Origin: Podarcis gaigeae
Lineage: Eukaryota
Direction: 5' to 3' (one strand)
Assembly: GCA_964106915.2 (NCBI GenBank)
Contig: OZ066919.1
DNA: 64,000 nucleotides
Part shown: one piece after another, positions 7,405 through 63,481 of the stretch
How positions within the stretch are numbered: the stretch's first letter is position 1
Layout of the letters: each line of letters begins with the position of its first letter
Program-made: the position numbers and the translations under genes
The notes under the pieces: generated by a model
Databases searched by the model: none
What the model was told of the DNA's origin: nothing
What the model saw: only the letters and a program-made list of their open reading frames with translations

Positions 7405-7627
7405 AGATGGAAGGAGCAGAGGAGTGTGTTTAAAATCTAGCCTGGTGTACAAAGTTAACATTTGCATTTGTTGCTTTTCCCACTTTTGACTCTGGCCTCA
7501 GCTACCACTGGTATTTGGCCCCTGAAAGGTTGTCTAGATGGAAATGCAACCCTTGGGGTGAAAATGGTTCCCTACCCCTGTTGTATGGCGTGCCCTAGTT
7601 TGTGTAGGATGTGTAGGATGTTTGTGT

Positions 7628-8154
7628 AGCAATGACAAACCTAGAAAAGCAATGACAAACCTAGACAGCATCTTAAAAAGCAGAGACATCACCTTGCCAA
7701 CAAAGGTCCGTATAGTAAAAGCTATGGTTTTCCCAGTAGTGATGTATGGAAGTGAGAGCTGGACCATAAAGAAGGCTGATCGCCGAAGAATTGATGCTTT
7801 TGAATTATCGTGCTGGAGGAGACTCTTGAGAGTCCCATGGGCTCCAAGAAGATCAAACCTCTCCATTCTTAACGAAATCAGCCCTGAGTGCTCACTGGAA
7901 GGACAGATTGTGAAGCTGAGGCTCCAATACTTTGGCCACCTCATGAGAAGAGAAGACTCCCTGGAAAAGACCTTGATGTTGGGAAAGATTGAGGGCACAA
8001 GGAGAAGGGGACGACAGAGGACGAGATGGTTGGACAGTGTTCTCGAAGCTACCAGCATGAGTTTGACCAAACTGCTGGAGGCAGTGGAAGACAGGAGTGC
8101 CTGGCGTGCTCTGGTCCATGGGGTCACGAAGAGTCAGACACGACTAAACAACAA
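7628..8154 (+). mobile_element. Bov-B (RTE clade) LINE, 5'-truncated 3' end
   Basis: ORF 7622-8212 gives the Bov-B C-terminus (RKAMTNLDSILKSRDITLPTKVRIVKAMVFPVVMYGSESWTIKKA...AWRALVHGVTKSQTRL). There is a CAA tail and a 12-bp TSD AGTTTGTGTAGG at 7597-7608 and 8155-8166. Confidence 0.97.
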
Positions 8155-8850
8155 AGTTTGTGTAGGTAACAGTGAGGTCCAACTTTCTTGGCTTGGTCCC
8201 TATATAAATTGAGGGTTCAACATCAAAGGTGTCCAAAAATCTCTCAGTTGTAGGGATTTAGAGGCAGGTGTCTGAAGGGTTTCTATTTATCATCAAGGGT
8301 AAGAAGTCTGAAAAACAATACTGTAGAAGAATAGATTGTTTTAATAGTTCCTGTATACTACTTAGATGTTTTACTACAATCAAGTAGTATATAATTTTAT
8401 TTAAATAAAATAAATAGAGCAATGCAGAACTGTAACAGCTCAGTTTACCTTTCTTCTTGCTCCCAGTCCACCCCCATGAGTTTGCCTCAGTATGAAAATT
8501 CCTGAGTGGAGGAGATGCAGGCTTTATTTTGTTTTCCTGATGTTCCCTTACCTGCTCATTTCCACATTTTATGTGCTCTTTCACATGACGTAAAAGCCAC
8601 ATCTGGAAGTCTAGTGGAATCTAACAGAAGTTGAGCTCTGATTTCCATGTTAATGGTTTCCAGAAAAAAAAATCCATTTTCAACCATGTAACCGGGCTGG
8701 GGTAGGGTGGGACTGCAGGAGTTTTCTGTTGCAATTTCACATATCAAAATTTGGGTCAGTACCCTGGCATAAAGTTCTTTCCTGCTGTTTAAAAATTAGT
8801 GTGACATGGCAATGTACCAATAAAAAAGCCACAGTTCCATAATGCAACAG

Positions 8851-22584: not shown

Positions 22585-24021
22585 CTCTTTTTTTTTAAAT
22601 TATATTTTATTAATTTTCCATCAAAAGAAAATACAAATCACATTGCAACTTCTACAAATTCTCCTCATTTTTAGGCTTCCTTCAGCCTCTCTGCCAATCA
22701 TCCGAATTAATTTTTCTTTAACTACACATTTCCAGATTTTGCTATTACCTTTATCCCTACCCCCCCTCTTCTATTTCCCTTTTTTGTAATATTTCTTATG
22801 TTATTACAGAGCTTCTTTAAATGCCACTAACGTTATTTCACAATCACTTATACATTCCCAATACTCAACTAACTTTCCCCAGTCCTCGATGAACTTTTGA
22901 TCTCGTAGATATCTGATCTTCCCAGTCAGTTTATCAAGTTCTGCATAGTCCATCAGCTTCATTCTCCACTCCTCCAGTGTTGGTATTTGTTCTTGTTTCC
23001 ATTTCTGGGCCAGTAATATTCTTGCCGCTGTTACTGCATATTGGAAAAATTTATGATGCTTTCTATTTATTTCATTTCCAACGATTCCTAAGAGAAAGGC
23101 CTCTGGTTTCTTAGCAAATGTATATTTCAACATTATTTTCAGTTCATTATATATCAACTCCCAGAAGCTTTTCACTTTCTTACATTCCCACCACATATGA
23201 TAAAATGTACCATCCTTTTCTTTACATTTCCAACATTTCTTACATGTCTTATACATTTTTGCAAGTTTTACTGGTGTAATATACCATCTATATATCATTT
23301 TCATAATATTTTCCTTTAATGCAGTACATGCAGTGAATTTAATACTTTCATTCCATAGTTTTATCCAATTATTAAATTGTATATTATGACCAATATCTCT
23401 GGCCCATTGTATCATAACTGATTTAACTTCTTCATCCTTTGTATGCCATTCCAACAATATCTTATACATTTTAGATAAAATTTTATATTCATTATTTATT
23501 ATTTCTAATTGAAATTTGGAATCTTTCTCTACATATCCATATTCTTTGAGATCTTTTTTAAACATTTAATTTATTTGAATATAATGCAACCAATCATATA
23601 CCAACTCTTTTACTTCTTCATAGGGTTTCATTTTCCATTTCCCCCCTTCTTTAACAATCAAATTTCCATATGTAATCCAATTCTTTCTCATATTAATTTT
23701 TTTTACACTCATAACCTCTAAAGGAGACAACCAGTGTGGAGTTTTTGGTTCAAGTAGGTTTTTATACCTATCCCATATTTCTATCAACGATCTTCGGAAA
23801 ATGTTGTTCTCAAAGCCTTTATGGATTTTCTTCTTTTCAGCCCATAGATACGCGTGCCATCCAAATCTGTTATCAAATCCTTCTAAATCTAACTTTTCTA
23901 ACTTTATCCATTCCTTTAACCAACAGAGGCATGAGGCTTCATAGTACAATTTCAAGTCTGGCAAGGCGAAGCCTCCTCTTTCTTTTGCATCAGTTAGTAG
24001 CTTAAATTGAATTCTTGGCTT
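22585..24021 (-). mobile_element. L1-B, non-inverted 3' segment (ORF2 C-terminus, 3'UTR, polyA)
   Basis: ORFs 23566-23964 and 22804-23565 (one frameshift) give ERGGFALPDLKLYY, WYITP and the CCHC knuckle CWKCKEKDGTFYHMWWEC. Poly-T is at about 22588-22596, and the TSD is at 22571-22584 / 24253-24266. Confidence 0.95.
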
Positions 24022-24252
24022 CTTATAGATTTATATCAGAATAACTATATACCAGTGTGGAATGGGATAAAGAAAGATCTGGAAGTGTGGGGACGAATGA
24101 AATTGTCGTTTTGGGGGAGGATCTCAACGATAAAGATGAGCGTGCTGCCAAAGTTATTATTTTTATATCAAACGATTCCAATAATCAAGGGGACTGGGAT
24201 TTTTAAAGAATGGCAAAAAGTGATTTCAAGGTATATCTGGCAGGGTAAGAAG
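24022..24252 (+). mobile_element. L1-B, inverted 5' segment (twin priming)
   Basis: The plus strand encodes IDLYQNNYIPVWNGIKKDLEVW...GRISTIKMSVLPKLLFLYQTIP...YIWQGKK. In ORF2 this directly precedes the KPRIQFKLLTDAKERGG that starts the minus segment at 24021. Confidence 0.92.
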
Positions 24253-25760
24253 CTTAGTATTTCTTTATCACTCTATTTACCTTCTTACTATACTTTTAAA
24301 AAAATACTTTAGTATTTGTAAATCAGTTTCAAAAATTATCATTACAAAATATTTTAAATCAATTCTGCAAAGGATTTCAAATGTTTACAATGTTCTTTCA
24401 TATATTGTATAAATTTACTCCAGTCCTTTTCTTTTCTTTTCTTTTTTGATTTTATTGTTACCGTTTACATTAACACACCATACAGAAAAAGAAAATAAAT
24501 TTCCATCACCACCGAAGAAAAAAGAAGAGAATTAATACATCAACTAATAACCTTCAAAACATAAAATAAAAGTGGTCTTTTTCTGTCGACCAGACTTCCT
24601 GTCTATTCCTTATTACAGATTCTGTATTATTTGTTCACTGCCATTGCATAACTAGTTTTGTTCAAATTCAGTATCCCTTGATCCATTCATAGGTTTTACC
24701 ACATTCTTAACACTGCTACTGAAATTATTTGAACACTGCATATGACCTTAGACTACTATTATTATTTTTCAAATATATTTTAAAAACTTTCCATTTTGAG
24801 ATAAATATCTGTTTTGGTTTATTTTTATGTCTTTTCTGACATGCTATCTAATTCTGCGTATTCTGCCAATTTTTGAATCCATTCTAATCTTGATGGGACT
24901 TTATCACTTTTCTAATTTGCCGCAATGAGAACTCTTGCTGCGACCGTAGCATATAAAAAGATCTCTTTAGCTTTTTTAGGAATATCCGAATCTGTGATTC
25001 ACAAAAGGAAAACTTCTGGTTTCCTATTTAAATATATTTTAAATATTTTTTTCCAATTCTATGTGGATGTCCTCCCAAAACATCTTGATTTCTTTACACT
25101 GCCACCACATATGGAATACAGTACCTGGCTTTTCTTTACACCTCCAGCAGTTATTTGGGTCATTTTTTAACATCTTGGACAATTTCCAGGGGGTTAAATA
25201 CCACCGATGCTGCATTTTAAGAAAATTCTCTCTCAGAGAGTAACAGGCTGTAAAATTTCAATTTGTTTTAGGCAGGCTTTCCCACTGCTTCTTTGTTATT
25301 GAGTACCCAAAATCTAGCGACTACTTAATCACAGCCGCTGTAACATCCTCCTCCTTGACTTCCCAGTCAAGGAGGAGTTGGTATACTTTAGAAAGTGTTT
25401 TAATTCTGGAGTTCACCAAATCCTATTCAAATCTAGAAGTCTCAGTGGAAGATTTTTAATTTCAGTTGGTTATTATCCTCCTTTAGGAGTACTTTATATG
25501 TTGGCCAGGGTTCCTGGGTATTTTTTCTCTTGACCGCCTTAGCCTCTGTTGGCGAGATCCACCAGGGAACCTTGGGTTCGAGCAGGTTTTTATACTTCTC
25601 CCAAACCGTCATTAGGGATTTCCTAATCATATGGTTTGAAAAATTCCTATGAACTTTTGCTTTCCCATACACTAAGTACGCATGCCATCCTCATTGATTG
25701 TCATAACCCTCCAAGTCTAAGAGGTCTGGGTCCTGCAGCGTACACCACTCTTTTAACCAG

Positions 25761-25853
25761 AACAAAAAAAATTCCTTCCAGTAGCACCTTAAAGACCAAC
25801 TAAGTCAGTTCTTGGTATGAGCTTTCGTGTGCATGCACACTTCTTCAGATACC
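25761..25853 (-). mobile_element. Short Penelope-like element fragment
   Basis: 93-bp insert between direct repeats CTTTTAACCAG (25750-25760 and 25853-25863). It carries a minimal hammerhead of the kind typical of Penelope-like elements. Confidence 0.8.
25814..25853 (-). ncRNA. Minimal type I hammerhead ribozyme
   Basis: Minus strand GGUAU-CUGAAGA-A-GUGUGC AU GCACAC-GAA-AGCU-C-AUACC. Stem I is GGUAU/AUACC, the CUGANGA and GAAA core is intact, stem II is present, stem III is the palindrome AGCU, and the cleavage site is UC. Confidence 0.85.
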
Positions 25854-26385
25854 TTTTAACCAGGTGAGACTCCAGTCCTTTTCAAACAGTTTGTCACGCT
25901 GGTTTCGGATTTTCCCTGTCAGCTTTGCCAGTTCTGCATATTCAATCCTTTTTATCTGCCATTCTTTCAAAGTTGGAAGTTCCTACTGCTTCCATTTCTG
26001 GGCTAAAAGTGTCCTTGCAGCCATGGTAGCATATATAAACATATTTAAATCTACTTTTGGAATTTCTTCTCCCACAATACCCAATACAATCTCTAATTCT
26101 TTGGTCATGTTAAAACACAGTTTTTCCTTTTTAAAAATTACAGCTGCAGGGTGAATCAAGATCAGGACTATGATGTAGGAATGTAGGATTTATCCCTTTT
26201 CTTCAGTGCTGCACTCTGGTGGAAATTGGCCTGTTGGTGTTGCGTACCAACGAGAAGCTGCTATTGGACCCCAAAAGTTAATTTCTGCCGCCCAACAGAT
26301 GACATTTGGAAGATAAATGGAAAATAACTTCAGTCACTCATATACAATAGATCACTATTTTCTAGGTATCTGTGAAAGTATATAA

Positions 26386-28099: not shown

Positions 28100-28359
28100 N
28101 NNNNNNNNNNNNNNNNNNNNNNNNNNNNNNNNNNNNNNNNNNNNNNNNNNNNNNNNNNNNNNNNNNNNNNNNNNNNNNNNNNNNNNNNNNNNNNNNNNNN
28201 NNNNNNNNNNNNNNNNNNNNNNNNNNNNNNNNNNNNNNNNNNNNNNNNNNNNNNNNNNNNNNNNNNNNNNNNNNNNNNNNNNNNNNNNNNNNNNNNNNNN
28301 NNNNNNNNNNNNNNNNNNNNNNNNNNNNNNNNNNNNNNNNNNNNNNNNNNNNNNNNNNN
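28100..28359. other. Assembly gap (260 N)
   Basis: Run of N. Confidence 1.
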
Positions 28360-28905: not shown

Positions 28906-30239
28906 AGTTTAGGAGGCTTCCTGAGCCCAAGGTTGTACCCTTTGACTACCTGAACTAATAACATTGATAGTATGACCCCACCTTTTACTATTCCCCCCCC
29001 TCCACCCATGTTTTTACACACACAGTTGCCAATTGAAGATAGCAGTTCAGAAACCTGATAGTGGTCTCTAGGACACAAAAGTGCTTTAAATGTTAAATTT
29101 GTTAGTTAAGCTGCTTATATAGGACTCCTTTGTTATTTTTGCAGCAGACACACAGCCACCCTTTTGTCTTAATAACTGTCATAGAATCCATAACTACGCC
29201 CCAGTTGTTAGCTCAATTATGCCAGTGTCCTTCCTATCTCTTACTAATGCTGTAGGCCCATCATGTGCTGTATAGAGTTGTACCCTCTTAGTCAAAGTAT
29301 GTTGCCTTTCACACCTGTCAGATCCCTTCTAGGTTCCTGTGTTTGGGCAAGTGATAATAAAAGGTCCCTTTTATATTTTCCCAGTCACAGTCTTATGGAT
29401 GTCTTGCATTTTTCTTGTGTGTCTGAGGCATCAAAGGTGGTCCCAGAGGTGTGGTTGATGGTAGAGTTACAGTCTGAACTTGAAGGCAATTCTAGAGATG
29501 TATTGGAGCGGCCATGGAATTGTTTGATGTTGTTCTTCTCTTCCTCAGTTGGTTCTTTTTCTGCTTCTAGGATCCTTTTTGTCCTCAGCCAAAATACTTC
29601 CCTAGCCTTCTCATTCTTCTCTTCCAGCCAGCTTGCCCCAAGTCTTCTGAGACCAAGGCCAAGTGGGAGTATCTGGGATGGAAATGAAGTCCACAAAGCT
29701 TTTAAAAGCAAAACAAGACTTTTCCAAACTTAGTGATTAGCATTCTTCATAGGATACATTCTTTTATATTTGGGTGTAAATGAATTTGGCATTTCAGATT
29801 GGACAAGTGGGATGTTAGAAATGAATTAGAATGAACAGGAAGATCACTTAATTAATACTGCAGGAGGTGTCCATTCTATAAACAGAAAACAGTGGATATG
29901 GAGTTCACGAGAACACACTTGAACAGGAATGACAATACCACTCTGCTCCTTCCATCCTAGATAAGAAGGCTTCCTCATCACACCTCAGTGTGATCACGTT
30001 TGTCCTTGCCACATCACAGGCAGGGTAGGCAAGGAAATGGAGCACAGTGCATAGCTTGTAAAATGCCATTGGATGAGATTAGAGCAGGATGGGGCAGCAA
30101 TGTAAACAGGACAAGCTTTGTAAACACAACTGCAGCTGGGATAAATTTAGCTGGTTGGGGTTGCAGCCATAGCACTGCAGGACACTGTGTCAGGGCATTC
30201 TTGTTAGGAGGGGAAACTGGATAAACAAACACAGCTTGT

Positions 30240-31904: not shown

Positions 31905-33480
31905 TATTTGTTGTTTGTATCTGTCTGTCTTGTGACACAATGGAAGAGTGCACCTTTTGTTGTAAAGTCAAACCTTTGGAGAGTTACAGTGCCTGCTGTG
32001 GCTGTAGAGACCAATGCAGGAGAGACACGTTTTATTGCAGGTAGGACAGATGAAGGCATCTGGTTTTGCTGCTACAGGTGCATCATGGTGTTTCTTTTAT
32101 CTGTGCTCATCCCAGTAGTCATTCCTCCTCTGGTGGCTGCTGTGGATACATGAGCTAGCTGACTCTAGGCATTTTGATCATCTGCAAGGGATTGCCATAC
32201 GGCGGGGTTAATGTTGTTAACCTTCATATCTCATTTTCAGACATCTTTGTAACACAGAGTTGGTCTGGCAACAGGCCTAGTGCCTGAAGCCAGCTCCCTT
32301 TAGAGGACGTCCTTGGGGATCCTGCCATCTTCCATTCTTTGGACATGATCAAGCCAGCATAGACATCACTGAAACAGAAGCGTGAACATGCTGGGAATGT
32401 GGGCTTGGGGGAACACATATTTGTTTGAGACTCAGTCCTGGAAGGCATTGAGACGTTGCTACTGTTGGGTGTCAGTTGCCTACAACTCACTTCCATAAAG
32501 CAGTGTGCTCAATGCTCAAGCCTGGTAGACCTTCATCTTGCTATTAGTTGTTAGTGTCACATTTTCCCATACCCTTTTGGAGAGGTGAGCCATTGCCCCA
32601 GCTGCCTTGCCAATACACTTGTCCAGCTCTGTGTCGATGGAAAGTGTCAATGGAAAGGTAGAGCCCAGGTAGACAAAATAGTTTACCATCTCAAGAGCGT
32701 GGTCACCAGTGCTGATGTGTGGAGTACTTGCAACATCCTGACCCAGGAAGTTGGTCTTTGTCAGGCTGATGGTGATGCCAAACTAGGTGCAGCCTTTTGC
32801 AAAACAGTTGATGAGTCTCTGTAGAGTGGTGTCAAGGCTGTGTCATCTGCAGACACCATCTCTCAGATAAGAACCTTCCACACTTTTGTCTTGAACAGAC
32901 CCCTGTCAATCCTTGAATGAAAGTATGCACCACCTTCAATTGAGCTGAAGGCATAGGAGAGCAACAGTGAAAAGTATATGCCAAAGAGTGTTGGAGCAAG
33001 AACACGGTCCTGTTTCACACAGCTATTTATAGGGAAGGCGCCTGAGGATACTTCATACTGGACAGTGCTGTGCATGTTCTCATGGAAGGACACAATCATC
33101 TTGTGGAGCTTAGGTGGGCATCCTATCTTGCTGAGCAGTGTTAAGGGTCCTTTTTGGCTGACAAGGTCAAAGACCATTGTCAGGTCTATGAAGGTGATGT
33201 ACAGGGGGCATCTCTGCTCTTGGCATTTCTCCTGGCTCAGTGAGAAAATAATGTCAACTGCTGACCTGAACTCTAAAGATGCATTATGACTTGGGATAGG
33301 CCCTGTCAGCGAGTAACTGTAATCTGTTGAGAACTATGTGGGCAAAGACTTTCTCTACAGTACTCAGCAGGGAGATACTATGGTAGTTGTTACAGTCATG
33401 GCAGTCGCCTTTGCTATTATAGAGGGTCAGAATGCCGGGGTTGTGCAAGTCTTGTGGCACGGATCCTTTCCCCCAACTAC
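31905..33480 (-). mobile_element. RTE-clade LINE, degenerate RT and 3' end
   Basis: ORFs give TLYNSKGDCHDCNNYHSISLLSTVEKVFAHIVLNRL and IGCPPKLHKMIVSFHENM...VKQDRVLAPTLFGIYFS. An ADD motif lies near 32842-32851, and the 3' end is homologous to 19437-19945. Confidence 0.92.
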
Positions 33481-33950: not shown

Positions 33951-36900
33951 GTGGATCAATTTATATAGTCCTGGGTTTAACCACATGCTCATGGTGGTTG
34001 GATGAACATAGCAGTTGTGGCTTTATTACTATAGAATCAAGAGTGTGTGACGAACAGCCACCTGGACTGCAATTTGTTTTTCCTTAGCAATTGGTTATTG
34101 CTACAGGCAGTGGTAACCCTAGCTCTCTTGTCTCTTTCCTCTCCTTTGCATATTTTTGACTCATGCTTCTTCCATGAAGCTCAAGGATATTGTATCCTCA
34201 CAATAAACCTGTAGATGTACTTTAAATTGCATATTTGTGATACAGGTTTATGTGAACTGATGTCATATTTCTGGTGTGTAGTCATGAGCAAGATCAGCCC
34301 TCATAATCACATAGCTGTCTAGGTTTGCATACAGCCAGACTGAAAGTAAGTACATGACTCCTGGGGAGGGCAGTATGGTCAGGGTTCCTGCAGAATTTGA
34401 ATGGACTGTCTCTTACTATGGTACCAATCTGCATGGCACAGTTAACAGCAACTCAGAAGCTGAGCGGTTCATCAGCATGCGAACTTCCTGGCACGTTCCT
34501 GTTGAATGCTGGAATGTATAGGAAGCATACAGAAAAGGAAGCCCAGTGTGCCATTGTACAACCTTTCAGTCTTACACTTAGAGAAGCAAAGAGTGTACTT
34601 CTTTAGCTTGCTCCTCATTCTTCCAATGTGCAGCACAAATACTTGGGTATCAAGCAAAATGCCAGAAATCAAACACACTGCAAGAATGATTCCCAAATAA
34701 ATGCAACGCCTTTATGGAAGGCTCAATTTGTAGGCGATTAAGCCATATAACAACAGTATGCTAGGATTGCTAGATTTTGTACCCATCTTTGCAATCAAAA
34801 TGAGGTCTAGTAATTAGAATTTTGAAGGTACCAGAACAGACATTCTACAGTAAATTTGCCTACCATTGAAAGACAAAAGGCTGGATTCAATTATAAAGGT
34901 GGGCTAATGGGAGCCAGTGCAAGGAGTTCTGCTAGTGCAATGGAACTTTCTCTCCTCTCTTCTCCTCCCTCTGCATGCCCCACAACCTAAATTGACTAAA
35001 TGTGTGTTGGGAGAACTCCCAGAACAGCACAGGGAGAGGAGAGGGGAAATTGTTTCATTGGGCAAACTGAAATGCTTGTGCTGATGGAATGATTGGAAAA
35101 GTGTGATGATGAATTTCTCCCATAATGTTTGTGCTAAAATTGGATTGTAATTTAAATTGGATGGTAATTTGATTAATTGTAAGAATGCCATTAAAATGCA
35201 TAATTATCAAAACAGATTTCAGAATATCCTTTTTACCACAACACACTGACTGAACCTAGCAGAAGGGCCCCAGTTCCAAAACTAATCTATGCCTACTGAA
35301 TTATTTTGAGATATCTAGTGGGCATCCAGGAAAAAAATGCAGATTATAAAACTGGTTTATTTCTGGATTGGGAATTGGAGAAGTTTCCTACTCCCTAATT
35401 ACAAGCCACACCATTTGTACAATTCTTAAATGTCTTGTTCTATGTCTTATTTTCCTCTTGGCAATAATGGAGCAGCTGTATGCTGTTCACGTTTACAAGT
35501 CTAGATCAGATGTAACACTTGCTGAATTTAAGGGTTGCAATTGGGAGTATACCTCACTGATTTTCAGGCCATCATGTGGGAGAGCATTCCATACTCCTAT
35601 TGAGGTGACTTTTCAAAGCAGAGAGGACTATTGCGGATGTGGCCCTTTCGTGCTGTCCAAACCACTGTGAGTTATGGCTTCTCCAGCCTCTAATTATGCA
35701 GTCAGCCCCCAGTCGCCTGTTCCTAACGAGGCTGACAGGCTAATCTCTCAAGAGCCCTTAATGTGTTATCATCTCTCGCTGGGTGACCTCATATTTCTAA
35801 CTGCTTTGGTGGGGGGAGGAAGGAAAAGTGTCGTCTGCTCTCCCCCCTCAACATAAGCCCACATCCTCAGGCTCATCTGTTCAGGCAAGGGAGATCAGCC
35901 CATCCATCACCTACCCCGTTGGGCTATTAGATGATTAAAGGCATTTTTTATAATATTTGGGCGAGTTTTCAAAGCTTCTTGCAAAGTGTCTGATTAACAC
36001 CCGTTTTAACCCCTCACTGGTCAGATTGCAAACCCCAGGAGCAGGGGAGATGCACATGGGCAAGACTGTTAAGAGATGCCTGCCTTCAGCAGCATTTATT
36101 TTGTCTGCTCATGCCCAGATCACTGACAAGGTGTGATTCATGGTCCCTGGACACCTGCAGGAAACAGTTCTTCCTTGCCAACTGGGACCTGGTGGTTTAT
36201 GAGGTTTTAACGGTTCCAGGGGACAGGAAATGGGACCCTGGTTTGTTATGCAACAGGCTGTGCAGGCGCTGATTATGTCTCCTCTTGGTAGCAGATCCAT
36301 TAGTTGCCCTTAGGAGCAGAGGGTCAGGATGGATTGCAGTTCTGTGACCCAGCAAGGAAAGCAGCTTGAGATGTGAACACCACACAGTCTTTGGCATTTT
36401 TTACCTTATCCACATGCCTACCCTTGTGCCCATTTCCTAGGTTCACCCACACCTCAGGTCACACATTCCTTCCAGATCTGTTCCTTTGGGCAGTTATCTG
36501 TTGCAGCTAAAGGCATGGAGACTGGGAAAGTGAGCCATGGGACAGAATTGTGCATGGTAGTGGTCTCTTTGTCTACCAGAGCCCCCTTTGGATTTGGAAC
36601 TTTCAGCCAACTCTGCTCAGGTTTTTCTCTACATTGATTAAAGTTAAGGTACACAGGGTTGTGTACATATGTGATGCAGTTGCACAGCATGTATAGTCAT
36701 GATTAAGGCCCTTTGCATGGAGGAATTGTAGTCATTAAAGGGCACTGAGTAACAAACACAAAACAGTGTTCTGGAGTTAAAAGTTGATCATGTCTCAATT
36801 GTAAAAAGTGCCAATATTTTAAGAGAGAGGGTAGCTGACTTTTAAGAGAGAGGCTAGTTACTTGGGGAAAGGGTGGTTTTTCTGCTTCATGCTGTCTGTA

Positions 36901-49581: not shown

Positions 49582-51056
49582 CAGGGGTCTGCAACCTTTA
49601 AGACAAAAAGAGCCACTTGGACCCGTTTCCAAAAAAACAACAACAACTGGGAGCCGCAAAAACATTGCAACATTTAAAACAAATATAACACTGTATATAT
49701 TGTTTCTTGCCTTAATGCTGTATATACAGGATCGTGCAGTCAGCTGTCAATCTCAAGAAAAAAGGACAAATAGCTAATTAAAATATTTAATTTACAACCA
49801 GTAAATTAAATACCACTTCAAAACAGTGACCAGTGTATATGGCCCCTTTCAATGCAGCCTGCTTACAAAGGCGGGAAAGACCAGCAATAAGCTGTTGCAT
49901 AACGTTCCCCAAAGAAAGTGTTAGCTATTCACCAAACTTCCCCCTGCTTAGTTTAAAAAGGGGCTTCAGGCAACTAACTCCCACGTGGAATTTCCTATAG
50001 TAAGATGGCGGCCACCTCAGAAGACCACATGGGCAGATAAGATGGCTGCTGGGACGATCCGGTTACCCAGCAACAGCACAGCTGTTTCCGACGCTTTTGA
50101 AAGCAGCCGGCAAAGCAAGCGTTGGAGCGCCGAAGCCACCTCACCCCCACAACTAGAATGCTGCGCATGTGACCAAATGGCGAGGACTTACTTTGCTAGA
50201 GACAAGCCCCGACACTACCACAAGCCTCCCTCTCTTCGCACCGCCCAGCCTCCCAAGAAAAAAAACCCACCTCAAACAGTCACAAAGCACAAATTCCACG
50301 CGACCGCAACTTGCTATGCCCAATAATCAATGCCCCAAAATGCCATAGAAAATTAATCAGGGCCCCAGTGTACCATAAATCATAATCAGTGGCTGATGTA
50401 AATAATAATTAATAATGAGGCATTCGTCATTATAAAAATACCTTTTTATTATTCATTTGTTTGACCCCTCAGAATTACTCCTCCTCATAGAAATAAAATT
50501 AACAAGTTACCTTTTTTTGAGTGTGTGTTCTTCACTCCCCTTCAAAACAGTGACCAGTGTATACGGCCCCTTTCAATGCAGCCTGCTTTCCCCAAGGAAA
50601 GAACAATTCACCAAACTTCCCCCTGCTTAAGTTTAAAAAGGGGCTTCAGGCAACTAACTCCTCCGCCTCCTCCCCTCGCCTCCTCCCCTCGCCTCGCCTC
50701 CTCCCCTCGCCTCCACTCCTCGCCTCCTCCCCTCGCCTCCGCTCCTCGCCTCCTCCCATCGCCTCCTCCCCTCGCCTCCTCCCCTCGCCTCCACTCCTCG
50801 CCTCCTCCCCACGCCTCCTCCCCTCGCCTCCTCCCCTCGCCTCCGCCGCTCGCTTCCTCCCCTCGCCTCCTCCCCTCGCCTCCTCCCCTCGCCTCCTCCC
50901 ATCGCCTCCTCCCCTCGCCTCCTCCCCTCGCCTCCGCTCCTCGCCTCCTCCCCTCGCCTCCGCTCCTCGCCTCCTCCCATCGCCTCCTCCCCGGAGCCGC
51001 AGCAAAGGCTTTAAAGAGCCACATGCGGCTCTGGAGCCGCAGGTTGCCGACCCCTG
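49582..51056. mobile_element. Non-autonomous hAT (Charlie/Buster-type) transposon, 1475 bp
   Basis: 16-bp TIRs CAGGGGTCTGCAACCT / AGGTTGCCGACCCCTG, a perfect 8-bp TSD GTTTAGGG (49574-49581, 51057-51064) and subterminal GAGCC motifs. Confidence 0.95.
50660..50991. repeat. 13-bp minisatellite (CCTCCTCCCCTCG)n with variant units
   Basis: About 25 units including CCTCCACTCCTCG, CCTCCGCTCCTCG and CCTCCTCCCATCG. Lies inside the hAT element. Confidence 0.95.
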
Positions 51057-52559
51057 GTTTAGGGCTTTAAAGGTCAGCACCAACAGTTTGAATTGTTCTC
51101 AGAAACATACTGGGAGCCAATGTACAAGTCTCTATCCATTTTGATGTGAAGGTGAATTGCAAAGTAAAATTTTGCCTATATGGATTCCAGGACTTATTTT
51201 TTAAGGGACAACATCAAGGGGAACTTGGCAGCAGGGTGGAGACACAAGGCCTTGCACATTTTCTATGTAACCTCAGAAAAACTTCCTGGGAGGCAAAGGA
51301 GGCAATTTCAAACAGCCCTTTTGGAAGAGGATTATAATGTGGAGAGACAAAGGGGTGGGAGGCCTCATGAGTCTCTCCCTAATCTAACATGGCAGTGTTG
51401 GTGGAGATTACAGATATGAACTTTCCTGAGGAAGCCCTCTTGGCACAAATGGACATGTAGCCACACTCAGGCAATGTGTTGTCCACCCACACTTGGGGAG
51501 GAGAGGCAGAACTGTCCACAACATGGCAAGATATGCTGCAATTGGAATTGAATCCTAACAATTCTAACTGATGTAATAAAGTGTCAAGTGACTGAATATC
51601 TGGCCTTGTAGTTAACTTGAGGCATTAAACTTATGGTATGGTCCTAGCAATCCTGTGGGCATATTTTCCCACCTAATCCTGCAGCAATCCATAAATTATG
51701 TATGAGGTTGTCCTGTGTTTGTGTGTTTAATAGAAGTTTTTCAAACTGTAAATTCTAACAGGTAGGTTTTCAGTATTTGATATTTTTGGCTGAGAAATTG
51801 GCAAGTACCCCACTTTGCACTTTTGGGATAGGGAAGGCATCACAGGGTCACTGTTGGAGAGGGATGAGGGATTCAAGGTGGTATACACCAAGCTCCTTGA
51901 GACCTCTGGCACACTTAAGCGCATGCACTGTTCTTCTGACCACTACCAGCCTGCAGACCCTTCAGAGGATGCAGCTCTCATAGTGGAGAAGACTGCCTGG
52001 ATAGAAGTAGAGTCAAAGCAATGCTTCACCATGCTACAACTCTCTGTGAACTAGTTGGTGAAAGGCAGTATCTCCCCACTTTTCTTTGGGGCAGCCTTCA
52101 AATACTTCCGTTGCCAAGGCCTTGTGGGTATCTGAATGGAGAGGCAGCTTGCATTCAGAAAGGATCATTTTGGGGGATTTGGGAACTATCTTCACCAGTG
52201 CATCTGCATTAAGTGATGGGTTTTGCAGCATTTGCTGCTTCCAGGTAAATTCCAGTTCTAGGGTTTCATAAAGTTCCCATTGAAACTGTAGCCAGCAGCA
52301 ACTGAAATCATGTTGCAGCACCTCATCTAGCAATGTTGCAGTTATCTTTCAGTATATGCTTTTCCCAGCATAGAACCCTTGCATGTTATAATCGTTTTTG
52401 CTACTGTATTAACAACGCCTTATTGGCATCCCAAAGTTACCTGTAGATCTGAAGACATGGCTACACTGCTTCCCCTCTCTCCTGCAATCAGAGTCTGTCT
52501 ATCTCTACTATAATATCAGCCTGTTTCTCTTTAGAGTTGGATGGAGTTTGAGAAGGTTT

Positions 52560-63339: not shown

Positions 63340-63481
63340 GTCACTTAGCTCAGTATTGCCTGAACAGACTGGCAGTAGATCTCCATGGTTCTCTCCCAAC
63401 TCTATGTGGAGATATGAGAGATTGAACCTGGCACTGTCTACTTGCAAAATAGATGCTCTCCCACTGAGCTATGGCCCCTTC
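63340..63481 (-). mobile_element. tRNA-derived SINE (same family as 38772-38980)
   Basis: TAGCTCAGTATTG...GACTGGCAG...GATTGAACCTGG...GATGCTCTCCCACTGAGCTATGGCCCC. Confidence 0.78.

Follow-up and report, generated by a model that had tools for sequence, protein, structure and literature searches.

A 92-bp insertion in the 64,000-nucleotide stretch of Podarcis gaigeae contig OZ066919.1 analysed here (the window) is real and young, since a contig from organism C carries the empty site, and contigs from organisms A and B run from the flank into the element. Read on the minus strand, the insert starts with a minimal hammerhead ribozyme. It belongs to a family that probably has thousands of copies, and is very probably derived from a Penelope-like element (PLE). 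With moderate confidence, it is read here as the terminal stub of a Penelope-like retrotransposon, lodged in a broken LINE-1 and copied from uncleaved RNA by PLE enzymes. Members of the family likely have a preferred rather than a random 5′ stop.

The hammerhead motif and its insertion site

On the minus strand, the insert begins as a type I hammerhead from its very first base (Table 1). Stem I comprises four base pairs (GUAU, 25852–25849, with AUAC, 25818–25815), to which the junction G at 25853 adds a fifth. The core CUGAAGA (25848–25842) follows, then a bulged A (25841) and stem II, which has five base pairs, a CAUG loop, and G 25840 with C 25827 as its closing pair. GAAA (25826–25823) is succeeded by G-C-U-C, of which G-C (25822–25821) forms a palindromic stem III without loop III; a U-C doublet stands at the cleavage site, with the predicted cut between 25819 and 25818. 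The 54 nt that come after stem I end in a U-rich tract. The motif thus has the elements of minimal type I hammerheads (core CUGANGA, GAAA and UH, with stems I and II) and those of the PLE type, namely an extra base between positions 9 and 10.1, a G10.1–C11.1 pair, and a loop-less palindrome at 15.2–16.2.

A minimal-hammerhead descriptor matches once in the 64-kb window, at this site, and in none of 200 dinucleotide-shuffled windows. The preliminary description, which had seen a complete core with a self-complementary stem II and a palindromic stem III on the minus strand, is confirmed; its predicted cut site and its estimate of about 50 nt ending in a U tract also agree with the present measurements. 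Rfam gives no hammerhead match at the gathering score, nor at E ≤ 10.

Stem II shows no variant among the rows displayed for the family, and its palindrome may be a family trait; it could seed dimers via the loop, or trap dimers as an inactive duplex. An ATG at 25834–25832 lies inside stem II.

Table 1. Features of the insertion and its LINE-1 surroundings (window coordinates).
Feature	Position	Strand	Basis
92-bp insertion, terminal stub of a high-copy hammerhead-bearing family, likely Penelope-like	25761..25852	−	Repeats, empty site, depth jump over exactly that span
Minimal type I hammerhead	25814..25853	−	Motif descriptor, fold, published Penelope-type consensus (PMC4209133, from its supplement)
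Stem II, perfect 14-nt palindrome, intermolecular duplex possible	25827..25840	−	Fold predictions
U-rich 3′ end of the copy, internal to the family, likely reverse-transcription start region	25761..25771	−	Loose ends at 25761, 25764–25766
Target-site duplication, element 3′ end	25750..25760	.	Single copy at the organism C empty site
Target-site duplication, element 5′ end	25853..25863	.	Base 25853 adds one pair to stem I
Decayed LINE-1 ORF2, middle to C-terminal, downstream of the insertion	24831..25760	−	tblastn to neighbouring copy, 42–46% identity
Few bases of ORF2 middle plus second C-terminal LINE-1 piece, joined near 25869	25864..26090	−	Paralogous contigs start at 25869–25872

The 11-bp direct repeat reported for the insert is an exact match, with a spacing of 103 bp; its chance occurrence is about 4 × 10⁻⁷ at a fixed place, and 2 × 10⁻⁴ when shifts of ±10 are allowed on both sides. 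An insert between direct repeats therefore stands as first described, with an amended length: 92 bp lie between the 11-bp repeats, and the 93 bp originally given require a 10-bp repeat, with the junction G at 25853 assigned to the element. The sequence fits either boundary.

Part of the 1.6-kb stretch around the insert is present in 20 of 24 listed sequencing runs, and four runs were examined. In organism C, one contig of depth 12.6 lacks exactly 103 bp, i.e. the insert plus one repeat; it has 113 letters to the left and 43 on the shorter side, and it crosses the LINE-1 rearrangement junction near 25869, which is particular to the insertion locus. This empty site in a relative substantiates the claim of a mobile insertion. 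The contigs from organisms A and B join the left flank to 24 letters of the element, with 0 and 1 mismatches, respectively; 24 letters are fewer than the 31-letter bridging rule. The LINE-1 frame is restored on removal of the insert and one repeat. The insertion probably dates from the interval between the divergence of organism C and the later separation of A and B.

At the protein level, the LINE-1 flanks are 42–58% identical to a neighbouring copy, whose C-terminal ORF matches human LINE-1 ORF2p (E = 1.2 × 10⁻¹³). The host LINE-1 is itself rearranged; a C-terminal ORF2 piece (25869–26090) is joined head-to-tail with a middle piece that runs to a second C-terminus at about 24831, and the insertion lies some 10 bp from the rearrangement junction (25869–25875). 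Another LINE-1 3′ fragment, at 22804–24030 on the minus strand, is less decayed and has an open C-terminal frame of 253 aa. Other features of the window are a tRNA-like match (63407–63478, minus strand, 32.9 bits) that is probably a SINE head or pseudogene; a reverse transcriptase-domain match below the Pfam cut-off (32866–33333); a 216-aa frame without match (7562–8212), which we take to resemble the C-terminus of an RTE-type LINE; a protein-like 114-aa frame on the minus strand (29388–29729) with no match in Pfam, PDB or the ESM Atlas; a low-complexity tandem repeat with long open frames on both strands (50600–51070); and a 260-base assembly gap (28100–28359).

A retrocopy or SINE mobilised by LINE-1, whose target consensus is a TTTT/AA nick, was considered and rejected: the insert joins six bases beyond TTTT/AA in the duplication, and there is no poly(A) in either orientation. 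The short target duplication (10–11 bp) without a poly(A) tail, at a site also seen empty, is in keeping with a PLE. Rotifer PLEs have target duplications of 8–10 bp (PMC3846280).

Extent of the family and the position of its 5′ ends

Summed contig depth over the insert is 1.3–4.2 million (four bins wholly inside, three DNA runs), while single-copy flank contigs have depths of 13–46 in three DNA runs. Such a sum is not itself a copy number; with division by 31 for contig overlap, it leads to a rough figure of 2,900–5,100 copies. In run X2, 3,058 of the 7,660 aligned records are at least 99% alike, and the family is therefore young. Relatives in metagenome, viral and prokaryote collections were sought with loose patterns, which gave 47, 26 and 40 loci; these are chance hits, because none of the 115 matches in the 113 loci was preceded by the catalytic core, and BLAST aligned none of them with the 92-mer. 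A strict pattern had no matches in metagenomes, and a 17-base piece of the element was absent from the papers searched, which were mostly open-access.

Family sequence extends beyond this copy in both directions. At the 3′ end, loose ends at 25761 and 25764–25766 have a common continuation of about nine letters; the U tract is therefore internal family sequence, not a tail or terminator. As regards a 3′ tail of the PLE type (30–40 bp), the family consensus continues for at least about nine letters past the U tract, the reach of loose-end consensuses being only 30 letters. On the 5′ side, a plurality continues for 7–8 letters (about 14 in the RNA-labelled run X15). The unit is thus not the self-contained one of the preliminary description. 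Among the eight joints listed there are three opposite-strand joints and one go-back joint, each with one end at 25850–25852. Copies with inverted and partial-tandem 5′ structures are hence present, and both kinds of joint are typical of PLE insertions (PMC8557442, in the parts consulted). Go-back rows ending at 25822–25823 look tied to the 31-letter word size.

These observations bear on the two origins initially offered, of which the Penelope terminal product is the better option. The other, a discrete non-autonomous mini-family (a SINE-like solo retrozyme), in which an internal promoter would drive transcription of the short copies and PLE enzymes would move them again, is unlikely. The clustering of 5′ ends is compatible with it, as is the internal promoter described for D. 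virilis Penelope; solo monomers and retrozyme families of 51–972 bp, with a mean of 176 bp in reptiles, also occur (bioRxiv 10.64898/2026.07.22.740005, sections seen). Furthermore, the C that this copy has at 25806 is lineage-biased, its share of depth being 32% in organism A, 39% in B, 7% in C and <1% in H; however, a young autonomous subfamily would yield the same pattern. The main objections to a mini-family are that copies run past both ends with common family sequence, and that 3′ ends are spread over 25761–25766 and beyond.

The 5′ ends behave differently from the 3′ ends. Partly aligned contigs break at 25851–25854 in at least 105 of 674, at least 101 of 672, and at least 123 of 526 cases, and depth shows no steady fall towards the element 5′ end. 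The preliminary description had made a discrete family depend on the distribution of its ends; the 5′ ends are indeed non-uniform, yet strongly clustered at stem I. The loose-end rows listed are 24 of 511, with ranking and filter unstated, and some ends may be favoured; the 487 unlisted rows have a mean of 2.6 contigs each. Contigs near their own ends are favoured in end counts, and where an RNA starts is not visible in contigs.

A rather improbable alternative is that a PLE was truncated at random on its 5′ side, with the start at stem I arising by chance and the pile-up reflecting clipping at the reference end and a contig-filter artefact. PLE insertions are usually 5′-truncated (PMC8557442 and bioRxiv 10.64898/2026.07.22.740005, as far as these were accessible), the small share of loose-end rows listed leaves room for a bias, the plurality at 25852 does continue upstream, and the pile at that position (76, 60 and 55 contigs) is partly forced by longer copies clipped at the reference end. 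The rows at 25851, 25853 and 25854, however, cannot derive from longer copies. Those at 25853 (29, 41 and 27 contigs) leave the family continuation at once and enter unrelated flanks, with an agreement of 0.40–0.41. Similarly, 8 of the 12 break rows listed (of 20) break at 25851–25853, after following the continuation for at most two letters. Interior positions of the element should be equally detectable, yet none occurs among the loose-end rows listed for the three DNA runs.

What causes the stop is less certain; run-off to a transcription start site is a tentative candidate. Directly before stem I, the continuation (ACTGAAAC, plus strand) can be read as a TCAGT initiator-like motif, but also as an acceptor site for splicing. 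For the excess of C at 25853 (junction G), three origins are conceivable: a copied cap, folding back of the cDNA onto its own complement of stem I, or a filter effect. An extra G at the junction, as a copy of the cap, is known from work on LINE-1; the joint 25818/25852 in run X5 has the geometry of a cDNA fold-back on the stem I complement, and such a fold-back is, besides splicing, an alternative to run-off for the 5′ end itself. For comparison, the terminal repeat of rotifer Pen2a has a TATA box and an initiator-like TCACT (PMC3846280, excerpt). In D. virilis Penelope, an intron ends at helix I (PMC4209133, excerpt), and the internal promoter has its start site about 120 nt further upstream. 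No description of PLE copies with clustered 5′ ends, or arising by run-off, was found in the literature covered, which was mostly open-access and in part available only as extracts.

Probable copying from uncleaved RNA and predicted ribozyme activity

PLE hammerheads are often sense-oriented and about 90–210 nt away from the 3′ end (PMC8557442, positions in File S2 against lengths in File S1). Taking about 100–200 nt as the typical range, the present motif is similarly placed; it is on the sense strand, and the ribozyme starts 92 nt from the end of the copy. Long copies of an endonuclease-bearing PLE would be expected to lead upstream into an ORF with reverse transcriptase and GIY-YIG domains; in the window, GIY-YIG matches were found in none of the 146 frames scanned (of 261 frames of at least 65 aa), and the only reverse transcriptase match among these 146 is 7 kb from the insert. 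For Poseidon of Anolis, the accessible part of PMC11167929 describes a purified protein that nicks AT-rich DNA on both strands and primes internally past the hammerhead; its template is mainly uncleaved RNA, and cutting by the ribozyme requires the presence of the protein.

A terminal stub could arise in an analogous manner. The PLE endonuclease would nick the plus strand after 25760, and the other strand 10–11 bp away. As in Anolis Poseidon, the reverse transcriptase would then use an internal priming site, here the U-rich tract that lies about 55 nt beyond the ribozyme. The cut site is preserved whole within the copy, and the template was presumably uncut. With the 3′ end of the copy 58 nt past the intact cut site, neither end coincides with the ribozyme cut, and an uncleaved RNA template is therefore favoured. 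In the family, synthesis often stops at the first bases of stem I, perhaps by run-off at an RNA 5′ end, with the initiator-like motif just upstream. Repair leaves the target duplication of 10–11 bp. The product would resemble a strong stop, the first terminal repeat being used for priming instead of the second; if the transcript started at the motif, the priming site would lie about 90–130 nt from the cap, and a stub would result. The extension of this scheme to the family at large, in which stubs would be strong-stop-like, their 5′ ends would mark the PLE transcription start, the junction G would be a copy of the cap, and thousands of solo hammerheads would follow, is more speculative, and we regard it as somewhat doubtful.

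A retrozyme-type product would be defined by the ribozyme itself; tandem RNA would be cut by dimeric ribozymes, circularised and reverse-transcribed. This model has been published for tandem canonical hammerheads (PMC7229834, parts seen), and run X15 has one go-back joint of 76 bp. It is nevertheless very improbable for the present copy, which stands alone, carries an unbroken cut site and ends elsewhere on both sides. Among the rows listed, none has a loose end at 25818–25819, and only one of nine Xenopus dimers was cleaved in vitro (bioRxiv 10.64898/2026.07.22.740005, partial text).

The pairing probability of stem I is 0.86–1.0 in the isolated motif, 0.01 in the bare 92-mer, and 0.11–0.33 with flanks; it falls in the longer sequence because downstream sequence competes. 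The fold of the 92-mer is no better than that of shuffles (z = +1.3). Within 25783–25852, the predicted fold of the bare 92-mer pairs the core and the 5′ strand of stem I with sequence about 30 nt past the ribozyme; this may constitute an off-state and is not significant against shuffles. Nearest-neighbour energies are −17.7 kcal/mol for the double-hammerhead dimer, −37.2 kcal/mol for the stem-II duplex dimer, and −20.2 kcal/mol for two monomers, so that a non-catalytic stem-II dimer is favoured by about 19.5 kcal/mol over the double hammerhead in this model without tertiary contacts.

A second copy of the insert does not occur in the 64-kb window, and no host gene or transcript across the locus was found in the window frames or the listed runs. 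For run X15, the RNA origin is a guess and the species is another one; it gives no evidence of expression here. A FAST_1 host gene (34907–35203, minus strand) was rejected as a weak match below the cut-off with no homologue. In the portions of PMC4209133 consulted, single minimal motifs do not cleave and dimers cleave at a low level. The lone, loop-less ribozyme is probably inert at this locus, because the window holds no partner, competing folds are favoured in the predictions, and single minimal motifs do not cleave elsewhere. The suggestion that a minus-strand transcript could be cleaved on pairing with another copy is possible in principle and finds no support here, with no second copy in the window and competing folds predicted. 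That the host has adopted the ribozyme to cut a minus-strand transcript at this locus is scarcely credible; despite an intact core and a predicted stem I probability of 0.13–0.33 in genomic context, this is a young insertion inside a dead LINE-1, absent in a close relative, with no host gene identified.

Relation to known hammerhead-bearing elements

Solo minimal hammerheads from truncated PLEs have been in print since 2014, reptiles included. Cervera and de la Peña (PMC4209133) describe thousands of motifs, mostly single and ‘probably related to truncated PLEs’, with similar motifs in turtle and snakes, and PLE-derived monomers are described in reptiles (bioRxiv 10.64898/2026.07.22.740005); both sources were available in part. 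Among the minimal type I hammerheads of Cervera and de la Peña (2014), the nearest example printed in the pages seen is a motif from Chrysemys picta. It has the same core, a bulged base before stem II, a G-C closing pair, a loop-less palindromic stem III, a 4-bp stem I and a U-rich 5′ flank, and PLE-type motifs there are likewise mostly single and dispersed. The letters of stems I and II differ in a compensatory manner, and only here is loop II the palindromic CAUG that creates a 14-nt palindrome. The turtle motif bears no mark of PLE association in the supplement, and in the sections consulted, neither the junctions of solo copies nor the distribution of their ends is described.

Poseidon of Anolis carolinensis (Frangieh et al. 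2024, PMC11167929, in the parts seen) is similar in having a hammerhead near the 3′ end of the insertion, an uncleaved template, copies that end past the ribozyme at more than one site, and an ATG within stem II. It primes in an AC-rich stem-loop 111–118 nt into the ORF, about 85–92 nt past the cut, whereas the end of the present copy is a U-rich tract, 58 nt beyond the cut, and the ATG frame here closes after nine codons.

Non-LTR retrozymes (Cervera and de la Peña 2020, PMC7229834; Li et al. 2026, bioRxiv 10.64898/2026.07.22.740005; both from partial text) are also short and non-coding, with a type I hammerhead; PLE terminal repeats have been proposed as their origin, and solo monomers occur. 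They are, however, tandem units, for which two or more hammerheads in a row would be expected; the insert is a single copy in 64 kb, with a target duplication, a minimal ribozyme and no end at the cut. R2 and L1Tc, with their 5′ HDV-like ribozymes (PMC6765202, excerpt), resemble the insert in that the ribozyme lies at the 5′ border of the inserted sequence. In those elements self-cleavage frees the 5′ end; in the present copy, 33 nt separate the 5′ end from the cut downstream of it, and self-cleavage therefore cannot make that end.

Taken alone, this copy is ordinary, being one of likely thousands, and serves at most as a presence/absence marker between close species. If 5′ ends of the family do stop at the edge of the ribozyme, then the copies would be an in vivo read-out of where PLE transcripts start and where their reverse transcription is primed, the abundance of solo minimal hammerheads would be explained, and the ribozyme would not define the ends of the inserted sequence. 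Should stubs also prove to be strong-stop-like, solo minimal hammerheads in animal genomes at large would be a by-product of PLE priming rather than of random truncation, and a source of retrozyme monomers.
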